Source: a bacterium | GTDB lineage: Bacteria; Patescibacteriota; Saccharimonadia; Saccharimonadales; SZUA-47 | Direction: 5' to 3' | DNA: 64,000 nt | Assembly: GCA_030428125.1 (NCBI GenBank) | Contig: JAUIBF010000001.1 | Span: forward strand, 234,383 to 298,382 | Part shown: positions 48,270 to 52,886 of the stretch, piece by piece | How positions within the stretch are numbered: position 1 is the stretch's first letter | Layout of the letters: every line of letters begins with the position of its first letter | The notes under the pieces: model-generated | Told to the model about the DNA's origin: nothing | What the model saw: the letters and a program-made list of their open reading frames with translations, nothing else | Database searches by the model: none | Program-made: the position numbers and the translations under genes

Positions 48270-48932
48270 ATGGGAAATATTGAAATTGCTCCAGAGCTTG
48301 ATAGGAGCTTAACTGCACTCCAGGTCTTTAGACGTTTACATGTTGCAGCAGAAGTTCCGTTTGAAACAGCAGCCGAACTACAGGGAATCGATCTTCAGGA
48401 TACCAGCACCTGTCGGGTGTCACCACAGGTTGGCAATACTGCTGTTTTGATGACAAGATTTCTAGATAGAAGTTACGGTAGTAAGCATAGGATGATACGT
48501 ACAATACACTTGCAACCAACAAACTCTAGTGTACCTTTAATGCAAGTCAATAGAGTCGGAAACAATGGTTCATATGTGGCACGTAGTGTTCAGGCATATC
48601 CACACCTTGAGATAAATGGATTGCGAGTGTACTCTTCTCGTCTGGATAGCGAAGAAGTAGTCTTCAATTTCGATGTATTGCGAAAATCAGCAGAAGAACT
48701 AGCTAAGCAGTCTCGGACTTTAATTCCTGTCGGATATGGCAGAGTTGTTGCTGCTGATGGAATGACACTTGACGAAATGACTGAAGAGGACTTTGCGACC
48801 GTAAACTCTGTTAATAGAGTGATTAGGATTACTGCCGCTGCGGCAGTAACTGCTTTGGGTGGCGCCAATCAAAGACATCTACTTGACGAGATGAACCTTA
48901 CAGCTAGAACTTCGGTTTCCTTGTCCGAGTAG
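48270..48932 (+). CDS. hypothetical protein (orphan, 220 aa, 3 Lys)
   Basis: Long ORF between rnc and rpsP. No motif recognised. Confidence 0.55.
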   Translation: MGNIEIAPELDRSLTALQVFRRLHVAAEVPFETAAELQGIDLQDTSTCRVSPQVGNTAVLMTRFLDRSYGSKHRMIRTIHLQPTNSSVPLMQVNRVGNNGSYVARSVQAYPHLEINGLRVYSSRLDSEEVVFNFDVLRKSAEELAKQSRTLIPVGYGRVVAADGMTLDEMTEEDFATVNSVNRVIRITAAAAVTALGGANQRHLLDEMNLTARTSVSLSE

Positions 48933-49032: not shown

Positions 49033-49521
49033 ATGCTTACTATCCGTATGCAGCGTACTGGCCGTAAAGGTCTAGCAAATTTCCGTGTTGTTGTGCAGGA
49101 TTCCAAATTCTCACCGACTAGCGGGCGTGTTGTGACTCAGTTGGGTCACTACAATCCACACACTAAAGAGACTGTTCTTGATAAAGAAGAGACTGAAAAA
49201 TATTTGAAGAACGGAGCGCAGCCATCACCGCGTGTCGTAAAACTTCTAGAGGAACAAAAAGTAAAATTACCGGAGTGGGTAGAGAAGTCAGCTACTGACA
49301 AGAAGCGAGCAATCCGAAACCCTGAAAAACTTCGAAAGAATCAACCAAAAGAAGAAGTAGTCGAAGAAGCTCCAGCTGAAGAGCCTATGGCAGAAGCTCC
49401 TGAAGCAACTGAAGAAGCTACAGCTCCTGAAGCAGAAGAAAAAGCTCCTGAAGCAACTGAAGAAGTGTCCGAAACACCAGCAGAAAAGTCTGCTGAAGAA
49501 GAAAAGCCAGCAGAAGCTTAA
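49033..49521 (+). CDS. rpsP: ribosomal protein S16 with long acidic Ala/Glu/Pro-rich C-terminal extension
   Basis: MLTIRMQRTGRKGLANFRVVV and GHYNP core, then roughly 70 aa of EEAPAEE-type low complexity. Confidence 0.9.
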   Translation: MLTIRMQRTGRKGLANFRVVVQDSKFSPTSGRVVTQLGHYNPHTKETVLDKEETEKYLKNGAQPSPRVVKLLEEQKVKLPEWVEKSATDKKRAIRNPEKLRKNQPKEEVVEEAPAEEPMAEAPEATEEATAPEAEEKAPEATEEVSETPAEKSAEEEKPAEA

Positions 49522-49620: not shown

Positions 49621-50085
49621 ATGTCTGATAACAAAACAATCGACCAGCAATTTATAGAATATGTGGTCCAATCACTTGTAAGTAACCCGGATGCTGTAGT
49701 CGTTGAGCGAACTATTGATGAAAAAGGTGTATTACTAACTCTTACAGTAGACCCAGAAGATCTAGGGCGAGTAATTGGTAAAAGGGGTGCAACTGCACAA
49801 AGCCTGCGTACTCTGCTGCGTGCACTTGGCACAAAACAAGAAGCTCGATTCAACCTTAAAATTGTAGACAACGGCGAACCTAAGCCTGAGCGACAGTCAA
49901 AAGGTTCAGGCGATGGATGGGCTTCAGCGCCATCTAGCTCAAATGACGAAAGCTCTAATGAAGTAGAAGCTGAAGAAGATACAACGTCAGCTGCAGAAGA
50001 CGCAGCAAACGATAGTGGCGAAGAAGAATCTGCAGTAGAGCGAACTCGACGCGAACTAGAAGATCTTGATGATCTTGATGTCTAG
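49621..50085 (+). CDS. khpA: KH-domain RNA-binding protein (KhpA/YlqC-like) with acidic C-terminal extension
   Basis: VQSLVSNPDAVVVE...GRVIGKRGATAQSLRTLL (GxxG KH motif). Classic position after rpsP. Confidence 0.8.
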   Translation: MSDNKTIDQQFIEYVVQSLVSNPDAVVVERTIDEKGVLLTLTVDPEDLGRVIGKRGATAQSLRTLLRALGTKQEARFNLKIVDNGEPKPERQSKGSGDGWASAPSSSNDESSNEVEAEEDTTSAAEDAANDSGEEESAVERTRRELEDLDDLDV

Positions 50086-50108
50086 AAAGTAAACTAAGAT
50101 ATTGATTG

Positions 50109-50134
50109 AAGAGCTCCTCGGAGCTCTTTTATTA
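50109..50134 (+). terminator. rho-independent terminator after the KH-domain gene
   Basis: Stem AGAGCTC/GAGCTCT around CTCG, followed by TTTTATT. Confidence 0.7.
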
Positions 50135-50149
50135 TGTATTGAAATCGGA

Positions 50150-50177
50150 TTTAAATCGGAGTTAACTCCGATTTAAA
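50150..50177. repeat. perfect 28-bp palindrome TTTAAATCGGAGTT|AACTCCGATTTAAA, plus an extra half-site AAATCGGA at 50142-50149
   Basis: Read directly from the sequence: the reverse complement of the left 14 nt equals the right 14 nt. Confidence 0.85.
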
Positions 50178-50248
50178 GTGAAATAACAGATTAAAATTTG
50201 TACATACTGAACTGAGACCGGATTAATACCAAGGAACAATTATTTAAC

Positions 50249-50277
50249 TTGCTTATGCATAGTTTGTCTGGTATCAT
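50249..50277 (+). promoter_or_regulatory. promoter TTGCTT-17-TATCAT for the candidate ncRNA
   Basis: TTGCTT at 50249-50254, a 17-nt spacer, TATCAT at 50272-50277. Confidence 0.45.
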
Positions 50278-50283
50278 CTGATT

Positions 50284-50500
50284 AGTCGATACAAAAATAA
50301 AACGACTGCGAGCCCCAGTAGTAAGCCAAAAAATTACACTGGTGGAAACCCGAAAGTAAATATGTGGCTACTACGGGGTAAAATCCCAGCTCTGGATTAA
50401 TATGAGCAAGACGGTTTAACAGATAGAAAGCTCACGCGAGCAAACCTTATTGGTTTGGAGCTTTATGTGACTAAACAACCATCCACTGGGGTGGTTTTTT
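50284..50500 (+). ncRNA. candidate structured small RNA of unknown class (about 215 nt)
   Basis: No ORF of 60 aa or more in any frame across 50086-50521. Bounded by a promoter-like element and a strong terminator (50477-50500). An internal 13-bp stem joins 50316-50330 with 50366-50378 (two bulged A). Smaller hairpins at 50384-50399 and 50441-50457. Confidence 0.45.
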
Positions 50501-50521
50501 AGTTGTGATATAATAAAATCA

Positions 50522-51166
50522 ATGAAAATACAAGTTATAACACTTTTCCCAGAGATGTTTGAAGGAGTTTTAGGATCCAGCATGCTTTGGAAGGCTAAAG
50601 AGCGAAATGGTGTCGAATATGAGTTAATTGATTTGCGTCAGTACGGCATTGGACCTCGCAAGCAAGTCGACGATCCTCCATATGGTGGTGGTGACGGTAT
50701 GCTCATGAAGCCAGAGCCAATAGTTGCGGCCATTGAAGCAGCAAAAAAGCTAGATCCATCAGCAAAGGTATATTTACCTACACCTAGAGGAGAAATATTC
50801 AAACAATCAAAAGCTAAGAAGATCGCAAAATCTGAACAGGGTATGATTATTGTCTGCCCAAGATATGAAGGTTACGACGAGAGAATCACTAAATGGATAG
50901 ACGAGCAGTTCTGTATCGGAAACTATGTGTTAACAGGAGGCGAAATACCGGCAATGGCATTAATTGATAGTGTTGTTCGATTACTGCCAGGAGTGCTTGG
51001 TGGCGAAGCATCAGCTGAAATAGAGAGTTTTCAGGCAGATGATAAGTCGATTGAGTTTCCACAGTACACTCGTCCGGAAGATTTTAAAGGCATGAAAGTC
51101 CCAGATGTTCTCTTAAGTGGCCATCATGCTGAAATTCAGAAATGGCGCAAGGAAAACAGTAAATGA
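50522..51166 (+). CDS. trmD: tRNA (guanine37-N1)-methyltransferase
   Basis: MKIQVITLFPEMFEG, PPYGGGDGMLMKPEP, GRYEGYDER, VLTGGEIPAM. TGATATAAT box at 50506-50514. Confidence 0.95.
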   Translation: MKIQVITLFPEMFEGVLGSSMLWKAKERNGVEYELIDLRQYGIGPRKQVDDPPYGGGDGMLMKPEPIVAAIEAAKKLDPSAKVYLPTPRGEIFKQSKAKKIAKSEQGMIIVCPRYEGYDERITKWIDEQFCIGNYVLTGGEIPAMALIDSVVRLLPGVLGGEASAEIESFQADDKSIEFPQYTRPEDFKGMKVPDVLLSGHHAEIQKWRKENSK

Positions 51167-52170
51167 GCAACGTTATAGATATAAAGAAAGCGCTAGAAGA
51201 GCGCAACAGAGATGCTTCAATAGCTGAATCAGGAGAAATAGCACAGCTTCAGCACTTTCCTGAGGCGCCACCACTAGCCACCGCAGGAGAGGTTAGGGCA
51301 CTGGTTGGAGATCCTTTTACAAGTGAAGAGCTTGCTAAAGTTTTTGATTATCACAGAGAAACAGTGCTGGGTTTCACAGCACGGAACGGATTGGAGTCTC
51401 GCACCCAAAGAATCTTTGAAGAATCACTAGCTGACACTACACCATTTCTGCAAGACGACACAGGCAATCCAATACCATCATACTTAGACGTTGCAGAAAC
51501 TGAACCAAAGTCTAAGGAGTGGATACACCGAGGAGTAATAACTTTATCAGATATTAACAGATACGCAGGAGAAATAGTTTTTGGTTATCGCAGAACTTTT
51601 CCACGACGCAAAAGCCATCCGTATTCTGCTGCAGATATTGTCTTAAGGAGTGCTTATGCGGGCGTCGCATATGAACTATTTGCTAAAAGTTTAAACGCTG
51701 CAGCAATGCAAGCCAATAAATTCGGTACGTATAGGCACGGGATTAATATGCATTCTATACATATGGATGAAGGTACCCAGCAGCTACTTGTAGGTGAAAG
51801 ACTACGTAAATTAAAAAGATTTGAGTTGCGTGACCACGAAGGCGAAAGACTGATCAGGGGTTTCGGTCATTTAGGGCTAACTGCCGAGCTTGAAAGAACT
51901 GAACTAGTGACTGAAATTGAAGCTGGTGAGATTACTCGCTACATAAATGCGTACTGGCGAGAACGTCTACCTGAAGGTTGCGGTATAGAAGGCGCCGAGA
52001 ATTGGTTAATAGGATACTCCTACCCGTATCATGTTGACGATATTATTCAGACTCTAAAAGCTTTCAGGAGCATAGAACAACCAAGGTTAATAGAAGACAA
52101 CTTCAAGGATACCCTTGAACAGGCATTTACCCCGTCGCATGGCTTACGACTAGTTACGGACGCTGATTAG
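51163..52170 (+). CDS. hypothetical protein (orphan, 335 aa)
   Basis: ATGA overlap with the trmD stop. No motif recognised. Confidence 0.6.
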   Translation: MSNVIDIKKALEERNRDASIAESGEIAQLQHFPEAPPLATAGEVRALVGDPFTSEELAKVFDYHRETVLGFTARNGLESRTQRIFEESLADTTPFLQDDTGNPIPSYLDVAETEPKSKEWIHRGVITLSDINRYAGEIVFGYRRTFPRRKSHPYSAADIVLRSAYAGVAYELFAKSLNAAAMQANKFGTYRHGINMHSIHMDEGTQQLLVGERLRKLKRFELRDHEGERLIRGFGHLGLTAELERTELVTEIEAGEITRYINAYWRERLPEGCGIEGAENWLIGYSYPYHVDDIIQTLKAFRSIEQPRLIEDNFKDTLEQAFTPSHGLRLVTDAD

Positions 52171-52208: not shown

Positions 52209-52616
52209 ATGTTAAAGAAATTTATCAAACCAGTTTATGCGCATTGTGATGTACCGTGTGGGATTTACGAAACGGATACCATGACTCATGCGGCCGCAAC
52301 GGTAAAGCGTATGGTTGAAAAATACAATGAAATCGGAGAGGTTGACGACGAAGACCCAGAAAGCATGAATACAGCTATCCGTTGCGTGATGACTAAGGAA
52401 GAACATGCACAGAAGTGTAAAGACCAGTTGTACTTACTATGGAGTGATTACTTTAAGCCCGAACACCTCGAAAAGTTTCCAGATTTGCATGAGAAATTCT
52501 GGATGGCAACAAAACAGTGCGGAAAAGTAAAACAAACAATGAGTGCCGAAGAGGCAGATAGGCTTATCGAAATGGTGCACGAAATATCTCATATGTTCGC
52601 AGATAGCAAAAAGTAG
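52209..52616 (+). CDS. sodN: nickel-containing superoxide dismutase precursor
   Basis: Leader MLKKFIKPVYA is followed by the Ni-hook HCDVPCGIY. The LWSDYFKPEHLEKFPDLH block is typical of NiSOD. AGGAGGG Shine-Dalgarno sequence. Confidence 0.9.
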   Translation: MLKKFIKPVYAHCDVPCGIYETDTMTHAAATVKRMVEKYNEIGEVDDEDPESMNTAIRCVMTKEEHAQKCKDQLYLLWSDYFKPEHLEKFPDLHEKFWMATKQCGKVKQTMSAEEADRLIEMVHEISHMFADSKK

Positions 52617-52886
52617 ATGATATTTTTTAGACGAGTAGTAGGTGAAAGTATGAGGCCGACTCTGCGGCCTGGTCAGATTGTTTGGGCTCATGAAATTCGC
52701 AGTTTCAGAAAAGGCCAAGTTGTAGTTGCTTTTGTTGGCGATAGAGAAGTAGTAAAGCGTATTGAAAGCATCGAAAATGGTGTCGTTACTCTAGTAGGGG
52801 ATAACGCAGAAAAATCAAACACTTATAAAGTCTCGGATACTAAAATTGAAGGTGTAGTATTTTGGCCCTGGGTGTCTACTAGATAA
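52617..52886 (+). CDS. sodX: S26-family signal-peptidase-like protease, NiSOD maturation protease
   Basis: GESMRPTL catalytic-Ser motif and VKRI (Lys) motif. ATG immediately follows the sodN stop. Confidence 0.8.
   Translation: MIFFRRVVGESMRPTLRPGQIVWAHEIRSFRKGQVVVAFVGDREVVKRIESIENGVVTLVGDNAEKSNTYKVSDTKIEGVVFWPWVSTR

Follow-up and report, generated by a model that had tools for sequence, protein, structure and literature searches.

The question raised by this locus is what is encoded in the long gap that separates the KH-domain gene from trmD in a Saccharibacteria (TM7) genome. In the window (the whole stretch of 64,000 nt that was analyzed), the local gene order is nusB, a NUDIX gene, rnc, an unknown ORF, rpsP (PF00886), a gene for a KhpA-type KH protein (PF13083; referred to below as khpA), the gap, trmD (PF01746) and an unknown ORF of 335 aa. 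The gap is 436 nt long (50086-50521), and the ORF list showed none of at least 60 aa within it, on the plus or the minus strand; the longest one reaches 55 aa, is located on the minus strand (50416-50583) and extends into trmD. A previous reading of the letters alone (the sequence-only reading) had noted this lack of ORFs and had proposed a transcript of about 215 nt, bounded by its own promoter and terminator, at the place where rimM normally sits. The features identified in and around the gap are summarized in Table 1.

Table 1 Features of the khpA–trmD region, with positions counted from the first nucleotide of the window
Feature	Position	Strand	Sequence, structure or basis
khpA-type KH-domain gene	49621-50085	+	154 aa; Pfam PF13083 KH_KhpA-B, E 1.4e-21
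Intrinsic terminator of the rpsP-khpA unit	50108-50135	+	GAAGAGCTCC-TCGG-GGAGCTCTT, then T-rich run; terminator scan and inverted repeat
Perfect 28-bp palindrome	50150-50177	n/a	TTTAAATCGGAGTT/AACTCCGATTTAAA; inverted repeat of 14+14 nt, 100% complementary
Predicted sRNA promoter	50249-50277	+	-35 TTGCTT 50249-50254, 17-nt spacer, -10 TATCAT 50272-50277
P0, 5'-terminal hairpin	50283-50308	+	UAGUCG 50283-50288 / CGACUG 50303-50308, A-rich loop; minimum-free-energy fold
First UGCGAG motif	50307-50312	+	Directly 3' of P0
Lineage-specific insertion	50313-50415	+	~105 nt; fold, and comparison with L300 and L302
Conserved core	50419-50473	+	Covariance model R1, 56.2 bits, E 1e-10
Core P1	50428-50433 / 50458-50463	+	AAGCUC / GAGCUU
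Core bulge	50434-50440	+	ACGCGAG
Core P2	50441-50446 / 50452-50457	+	CAAACC / GGUUUG, loop UUAUU
Single-stranded tail	50464-50469	+	UAUGUG
Intrinsic terminator of the sRNA	50470-50503	+	Core stem 50477-50496, U-tract 50495-50500; terminator scan, fold and inverted repeat
Extended -10 box of trmD	50506-50514	+	TGATATAAT; TG 50506-50507, TATAAT 50509-50514

The interval between the KH gene and trmD is occupied by rimM in many bacteria (rpsP-rimM-trmD-rplS cluster), an arrangement that would be compatible with a decayed rimM, or another pseudogene, in the gap. However, six-frame fragments of 50060-50545 matched no Pfam family at E-values up to 10; thus no remnant of RimM, which the sequence-only reading had named as an observation that would speak against its proposal, was found at the protein level. 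Length differences among relatives were not multiples of three. Furthermore, the KH gene directly abuts trmD in several relatives, with a gap of 5-32 nt, and describing this site as the normal place of rimM is misleading for the lineage. We regard the probability of a pseudogene as negligible.

The Infernal/Rfam scan that the sequence-only reading had suggested was run on the whole 64-kb window, where only four tRNAs were detected at the gathering score. At E-values up to 10, three members of the family described below (the window copy, L033 and L078) matched neither 6S RNA, SRP RNA nor any other family, and the sub-threshold matches were generic terminator hairpins only. No match to SRP RNA, RNase P RNA or tmRNA was obtained in the gap at E-values up to 10, in agreement with the earlier inspection of their conserved cores.

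The signals that would delimit a transcript were supported by comparison with relatives. The promoter TTGCTT-17-TATCAT, which had been recognized from the letters alone, is of the extended -10 type, because a TG is present at 50269-50270, and its position is kept in relatives: TTGCCA-17-TACTAT (L012), TTGCAG-17-TAACAT (L003) and TTGCAG-17-TACTAT (L302) are found in the same register. The predicted start of the RNA is ~50284. This promoter was not listed by the generic promoter scan, since its score of 8/12 is below the cut-off. Nearly all loci possess a near-consensus sigma-70 promoter (TTG(A/C)(A/C)A-17-TATAGT or TATAAT), and in 82% of 51 loci the 120 nt preceding the core contained a match of at least 9/12, compared with 9% of 958 random 120-nt windows drawn from the same loci; a promoter-like site is therefore 9-fold enriched at this place. 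In 47 loci, ~7 nt separate the end of the -10 box from the 5' hairpin. One clade, which some records label Microsaccharimonas, has its -35 box within the khpA coding sequence, and its -10 box TATAAT consists of the last khpA codons and the stop codon (GAT ATA TAA T). At the other end of the unit, the strong terminator AACCATCC-ACTG-GGGTGGTT-TTTT (50477-50500) pointed out by the sequence-only reading was also detected by the terminator scan. Its stem can be extended to 50470-50503, and the A-tract/U-tract extension (ACUAAAC...UUUUAGU) has a symmetrical form, as in bidirectional terminators. In nearly all members, UAUGUG is likewise followed by an equivalent terminator.

Conservation of the unit was analyzed in 80 related trmD loci from Saccharibacteria genomes and in 23 metagenome contigs; the TrmD relatives, with 65-83% identity, bear labels that are nearly all Saccharibacteria or Saccharimonadales. 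A search with the KH-domain protein retrieved close relatives only (at least 84% identity) and left this taxonomic range as it was. Iterated nhmmer revealed that only a 3' part of ~90 nt (~50418-50502) is widely conserved, in 58 related loci (a count that excludes the window and L001, a duplicate contig of the same genome), and on the plus strand in every one of them. Its elements appear in a constant order: an A-rich run, (A/G)GCUC, 0-3 variable nt, (U/C/A)GCGAG, the variable hairpin P2, (G/A)GAGC(U/C)U, UAUGUG, and the terminator with symmetrical A-tract and U-tract. A covariance model of the core (R1; 54 positions, 11 pairs) gave a single match in the 64-kb window and, likewise, no more than one in each of the 56 genome loci (of 80) where it matched, always on the khpA/trmD strand.

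Structural conservation was assessed in an alignment of 82 sequences, consisting of the genome members, the 23 metagenome members and two close relatives. Cells of paired columns could pair in 87% of cases versus 78.5% in shuffles, and 88 cells were changed on both sides versus 33 in shuffles; when the partner columns were slid, pairing fell to 28-58%. The two helices of the core behaved differently: P1 is invariant in sequence, whereas P2 covaries freely. In P1, the outer A-U pair is replaced by G-C in 7 sequences, and the inner four pairs contained 8 G-U pairs and zero other mismatches, indicating that the plus strand is the functional RNA strand. In P2, changes on both sides were observed at all five pairs, and a hairpin of at least 4 bp was present in 76/76 sequences, with 70 distinct sequences and 47 distinct combinations of stem ends. 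On the model-based alignment, RNAalifold recovered P1 alone, since P2 differs in length among members and its columns fail to line up; the P2 hairpin was therefore examined in each sequence individually. The bulge, (Y)GCGAG, and the tail, UAUGUG, are both single-stranded and invariant, and one short helix separates them.

The 5' part of the unit is conserved in architecture. Of 47 members, essentially all have a hairpin at the predicted 5' end, whose stem sequence differs among clades (AGUCG/CGACU, AGUUCA/UGAACU, CACC/GGUG, GCUUC/GAAGC), and the linker between this hairpin and the core is unpaired and consists of 61% A. Predicted lengths in the family span 87-224 nt (median ~120 nt). Short ORFs in the tail showed no conserved frame: AUG-UGA was found in ~60% of members, a GUG frame was not conserved, and the other frames had random lengths. 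Since the promoter position, the terminator and the covarying core recur in the 82 sequences, the ORF-free unit of the sequence-only reading holds, and ~50284-50500 very probably represents a real, conserved sRNA gene with a predicted transcript of ~216 nt, as judged from comparative sequence data. Its family of sRNAs, found in Saccharibacteria (Saccharimonadales-type genomes), is uncatalogued and has no counterpart in Rfam.

Four known elements were compared with the core by eye only and set aside. A K-turn would require GA on the non-bulged strand, which is not there; domain 5 of group II introns has local sequence similarity, but the bulge lacks a pairing partner; a mimic of the tRNA D-arm and anticodon-arm for TrmD would not fit P2 loops that are unconserved and without GG; and a boxA antitermination site has only CUUUA...ACAA in common, partly inside a helix.

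The window copy is near the top of the family length range, and its fold was analyzed separately. On the plus strand, 50279-50505 folded with -70.3 kcal/mol versus -49.0 ± 4.7 in shuffles (z -4.55; 0/200 shuffles as good), while the minus strand of the same region gave a weaker value (z -3.23). Downstream of P0, the first UGCGAG motif is shared by the window clade and the clade labelled Microsaccharimonas in some records, and many other members lack it. The closest relatives in terms of KhpA identity (95-98%), L300 and L302, run from P0-UGCGAG (CGACUGCGAG) straight to the linker and the core, and the segment between these elements in the window is therefore a lineage-specific insertion, which accounts for a length of ~216 nt instead of ~120 nt. 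The insertion contains a 13-bp stem with two bulged A (50313-50327 / 50366-50378) together with an apical extension, and a small hairpin, AUCC/GGAU (50383-50386 / 50394-50397). Otherwise it was found only in L012, in a shorter version with compensatory changes (CCCC/GGGG versus CCAG/CUGG; AUCC/GGAU versus AUUC/GAAU). The 13-bp stem had been singled out in the sequence-only reading; it does exist in the minimum-free-energy fold, and its 3' arm was placed correctly, but its 5' arm is not at 50316-50330, and as part of an insertion absent from L300 and L302 it is no feature of the family.

The size of the window copy, its stable fold and a 5'/3' pairing that can be drawn had also led to the suggestion of a rod-like fold with a closing stem, loosely reminiscent of 6S RNA. 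A divergent 6S RNA would bind RNA polymerase by imitating, as a rod, the DNA of an open promoter, and a strong promoter of the housekeeping type, suggestive of an abundant RNA, as well as the similar size of the window copy, are in line with this. However, no 6S model (RF00013 and related models) matched the window copy, L033 or L078 at E-values up to 10, and conservation is confined to the ~90-nt 3' part, the 5' half being unconserved. The typical member, with a median of 120 nt and an unpaired A-rich 5' region, is unable to form a rod; neither a conserved rod nor a central bubble is present, and the extra length in the window belongs to the insertion. The proposed closing stem (50279-50287 / 50469-50477) can indeed be formed with 8 of 9 pairs, but it is unused in the predicted fold and is not kept in relatives apart from a few, in which it shows no covariation. 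A 6S RNA is thus extremely improbable, and the rod-like fold proposed earlier must be abandoned.

Analysis of gene order revealed that the RNA stays with khpA. The khpA–trmD interval ranges from 5 nt to 2 kb in relatives, and the RNA is located 36-270 nt 3' of the khpA stop codon in nearly all loci, with the KH gene upstream of it in 49 genome loci. Extra genes, where present, sit between the RNA and trmD, on either strand, and are mutually unrelated (inositol monophosphatase, amidase, SPFH, GNAT, peptidase A4 and unknowns). The same linkage was seen in a DNA pattern scan that used the motif alone, independently of synteny, on metagenomes and viral contigs. Among 120 metagenome matches, 23 were true members, while all 97 matches in viral contigs were due to chance. 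khpA was upstream in 20 of the 23 metagenome contigs, and two others end at the contig edge; in the remaining contig, L200, an IS with an rve integrase and a FitA/PIN toxin-antitoxin pair are inserted upstream of the RNA.

This distribution bears on the idea that the RNA is the leader of trmD, that is, a riboswitch or attenuator controlling read-through into this gene. In ~15 loci, 15-47 nt lie between the end of the terminator and the trmD ATG, and GCUC in the 5' strand of P1 could pair instead with GAGC of the bulge, a possible switch; in addition, leaders of the rpsP-trmD-rplS cluster (L19_leader, RF00556) belong to the same gene cluster and likewise consist of a hairpin followed by a terminator. 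Unlike L19_leader, however, the present RNA has its own promoter, is placed with respect to khpA upstream and not to one particular downstream gene, and does not match the model. It keeps to khpA despite inserted genes, some of which are convergent on the minus strand, so that there would be nothing to control, whereas those on the plus strand are functionally unrelated and form no consistent regulated class. No riboswitch family was matched in Rfam, and the short AUG and GUG frames in the tail are not conserved. Because the RNA stays with khpA past the insertions and trmD has a -10 box of its own, separate from the sRNA promoter and 6-8 nt before the ATG, we conclude that the RNA is not a trmD leader; this role has a very low probability.

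The association with khpA is not without exceptions, since 13 of the 62 loci with both khpA and trmD had no RNA at the khpA–trmD site. The window KhpA-type protein consists of the KH domain, an acidic tail and a conserved C-terminus (...LDDLDV), and its GXXG loop, GKRG in the window, is invariant among KhpA proteins; neither the GXXG loop nor the C-terminus distinguished loci with the RNA from those without it among the 62 compared. The RNA is therefore dispensable or relocated in some genomes, and no signal of co-evolution with KhpA was obtained. The adjacency of the RNA and khpA could reflect simple inheritance of gene order.

Constant location 3' of khpA would also be expected if the unit acted mainly in cis, as a terminator and 3'-end structure that insulates the highly expressed rpsP-khpA from trmD, with a conserved hairpin serving the stability or processing of the mRNA 3' end. 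The symmetrical A-tract/U-tract form of the terminators is consistent with such a module, and so are one clade in which the distance from the khpA stop codon to the core is only 36-45 nt and the locus L004, where the 3' half and the terminator alone remain, directly after the khpA stop codon. On the other hand, a positioned near-consensus promoter is conserved before the unit, and in the window clade khpA is provided with terminator hairpins of its own before that promoter: in the window, the 28-bp palindrome forms a second hairpin 3' of khpA ahead of the sRNA promoter, and the long-spacer relatives L012 and L003 likewise have hairpins in this interval. A plain terminator would need neither the invariant bulge and tail nor a covarying P2. 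We consider a mainly cis-acting module improbable, and action of the RNA in trans rather probable.

A more specific reading, which we hold with only middling confidence, is that the RNA is a stable regulatory sRNA of this uncatalogued family that acts in trans, probably by binding a protein. The layout of the unit resembles that of trans-encoded sRNAs that work with Hfq, ProQ or KhpA/KhpB, with its own promoter, a 5' stem-loop, an A-rich stretch, conserved single-stranded motifs, a Rho-independent terminator and a length of ~90-220 nt; thus the family is new, yet of a familiar class, the terminator-ended sRNAs. It differs from them in its occurrence in a lineage of the candidate phyla radiation (CPR), in the sequence invariance of P1 and in a gene locked to the 3' end of khpA.

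The same classic layout, a 5' hairpin followed by an unstructured region and a terminator, would suit an sRNA that base-pairs with mRNAs and thereby affects their translation or stability, with or without a chaperone, using the GCGAG bulge, the UAUGUG tail and the A-rich linker as seeds, and invariant single-stranded motifs would serve a pairing seed equally well. We searched the start regions of rpsP, khpA and trmD for complementarity. In the clade that some records call Microsaccharimonas, UGCGAGCA matches rpsP +2..+9 (AUGCUCGCA) with perfect complementarity over 8 nt, and there the rpsP start region ranked in the top 3-17% of control windows. However, this match represents a single inherited event, and complementarity to rpsP was not enriched across the family (median rank 0.28; 5% of loci in the top 5%); the khpA and trmD start regions were worse than random. 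In addition, P1 is a helix and yet invariant in sequence, which a scaffold stem usually would not be. We rate a base-pairing sRNA as somewhat unlikely.

We favor an sRNA that binds a protein, for which KhpA is the foremost candidate, because P1 is invariant in contrast to the covarying P2, two single-stranded motifs are invariant, a second UGCGAG is present in some clades, and the gene is linked to khpA. In the proposed mechanism, the promoter would fire independently of khpA to give an RNA of ~216 nt in the window and ~120 nt in typical members, whose invariant P1 helix, (Y)GCGAG bulge and UAUGUG tail would together offer a surface for a protein to recognize; the first candidate for this protein is the product of the adjacent upstream KhpA-type KH gene. 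According to published reports, KhpA and KhpB are global sRNA-binding proteins, and KhpA dimerizes and requires its GXXG motif for RNA binding (bioRxiv 10.1101/2023.10.30.564711, PMC10117727, PMC13015501). KhpA/KhpB-type proteins are described there as binding many trans-encoded, terminator-ended sRNAs, and the KhpA/KhpB papers examined define no RNA recognition motif for either protein, so that a dedicated RNA partner of KhpA would be unusual. Specific binding of KhpA is accordingly a tentative proposal that we rate as somewhat unlikely.

In its strongest form, the proposal would make the RNA a dedicated subunit or regulator of a Saccharibacteria-specific KhpA RNP, in which a KH-domain dimer would clamp (Y)GCGAG and UAUGUG, and a lineage-wide housekeeping RNA comparable to 6S or Y RNA. 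Known cases of an RNA gene sitting next to the gene for its partner protein are smpB-ssrA and rsr-Y RNA. The present locus resembles these pairs in that a structured RNA gene is located beside the gene of an RNA-binding protein across a wide clade, with binding being hypothetical in this case; it differs from them in that khpA is retained without the RNA at the site in the 13 loci mentioned above. We regard such a dedicated RNP as unlikely. If it exists, the RNA would be the first functional sRNA reported from the CPR and, for bacterial KhpA proteins, the first cognate RNA ligand to be defined.

Saccharibacteria are episymbionts with tiny genomes and few conventional regulators, and we know of no regulatory RNA in Saccharibacteria or the wider CPR. 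Our literature search found no description of the present RNA, nor of any regulatory RNA from these groups. A single-copy sRNA with a strong predicted promoter, covariation and an invariant surface in many genera provides a concrete object for experiments and a new point of entry into RNA regulation in a bacterial lineage about which little is known, and its fixed place beside khpA leads to a testable hypothesis on what KhpA proteins recognize. Among Saccharibacteria, Southlakia epibionticum is reported to be transformable.

The signals of trmD itself were also compared among relatives. The separate -10 box that the sequence-only reading had assigned to trmD was verified, with the ATG (50522-50524) located 7 nt after it, and TGnTAnAAT-type boxes are present 6-8 nt upstream of the trmD ATG in many relatives, including L021 and L004, both of which lack an intact sRNA. 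A box at this distance predicts a trmD mRNA that is leaderless or nearly so, and trmD thus appears, from its sequence, to give rise to a leaderless transcript. The locus is unusually compact in its gene and promoter signals, with one -10 box being built from a stop codon.

Analysis of the sequence ahead of trmD revealed an extended -10-like box of the TGnTAnAAT type only 6-8 nt from the ATG, with no Shine-Dalgarno sequence ahead of the ATG, in the window and in nine related trmD loci (L004, L010, L012, L014, L017, L020, L021, L044 and L050). Relatives kept this box-near-ATG arrangement even at loci that lack the sRNA, the predicted non-coding RNA gene between khpA and trmD. The proximity of the box and the lack of a Shine-Dalgarno sequence together imply a leaderless trmD mRNA, and the predicted trmD promoter would then adjoin or overlap the sRNA terminator.

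Features in and around the khpA-trmD interval
Feature	Sequence	Position	Strand	Remark
220-aa ORF	window	48270-48932		just upstream of rpsP
rpsP (S16 gene)	window	49033-49521		acidic low-complexity C-terminal tail
khpA	window	49621-50085	+	acidic low-complexity C-terminal tail
Terminator hairpin	window	50108-50135		first of two in tandem after khpA
Perfect 28-bp palindrome	window	50150-50177		second tandem hairpin after khpA
trmD extended -10-like box and ATG	window	50506-50524	+	TGnTAnAAT pattern
335-aa ORF	window	51163-52170		start overlaps trmD stop by 4 nt
Nickel superoxide dismutase gene, then directly S24-type peptidase gene	window	52209-52886		PF09055 for dismutase
Truncated sRNA remnant	L004	651-721		GAGAGCUUUAUGUG and terminator; 5' half missing

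Comparison of the khpA-trmD interval among the related loci (L002-L081) showed the stretch from the sRNA terminator to trmD to be an insertion hot spot. It holds unrelated genes, in either orientation, for inositol monophosphatase, amidase_2, SPFH, GNAT, peptidase A4 and unknown proteins. On the upstream side of the sRNA, L200, a metagenome contig found by motif scan, carried an IS with an rve integrase as well as a FitA/PIN toxin-antitoxin pair (1-1732). The sRNA remnant in L004 comes directly after the khpA stop codon; it resembles an intermediate of decay that would retain terminator function alone. The sole other public contig with an identical trmD, L001 (Logan ERR3428546), stops at approximately window position 50147, beside the palindrome.

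The window copy of the sRNA contains an insertion of its own (50313-50415), within which a second UAUGUG(G/A)CUA was found (50361-50370, versus 50464-50473), and AGCUC...GAGCAAGAC (50389-50413) was similar to the 5' half of the core (50429-50446). The insertion may derive from partial tandem duplication of the sRNA; chance could also be the source of the two-copy 10-nt repeat.

Upstream, long acidic low-complexity C-terminal tails were present on both KhpA (130-190 aa) and S16 (~160 aa) in the window and all related loci, as were GKRG in the KH loop of KhpA and a nearly invariant KhpA C-terminal peptide, R-x-(E/D)-L-x-x-(L/F/M)-D-D-(L/I)-D-(I/V/L). Many assemblies break in or close to the khpA/S16 gene region. 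In one clade (L049, L054, L062, L063, L065, L066, L067, L071, L076, L077 and L078), the last 30 nt of khpA contain the sRNA promoter: the -35 (TTGCAG or TTGCGG) lies within codons for ...LAEL..., and ...GAT ATA TAA (Asp-Ile-stop) together with the following T supplies the -10 TATAAT. The rpsP start reads AUGCUCGCA in a clade represented by 13 loci (L049, L054, L055, L056, L060, L062, L063, L065, L067, L071, L076, L077 and L078), where it is perfectly complementary to UGCGAGCA of the sRNA (bulge and first P2 bases); this match was not found across the sRNA family as a whole.

Downstream, rplS often comes next after trmD in other bacteria, a place occupied in the window by the 335-aa ORF; neither this nor the 220-aa ORF had a Pfam match. 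The S24-type peptidase is probably the maturation protease of the nickel superoxide dismutase.
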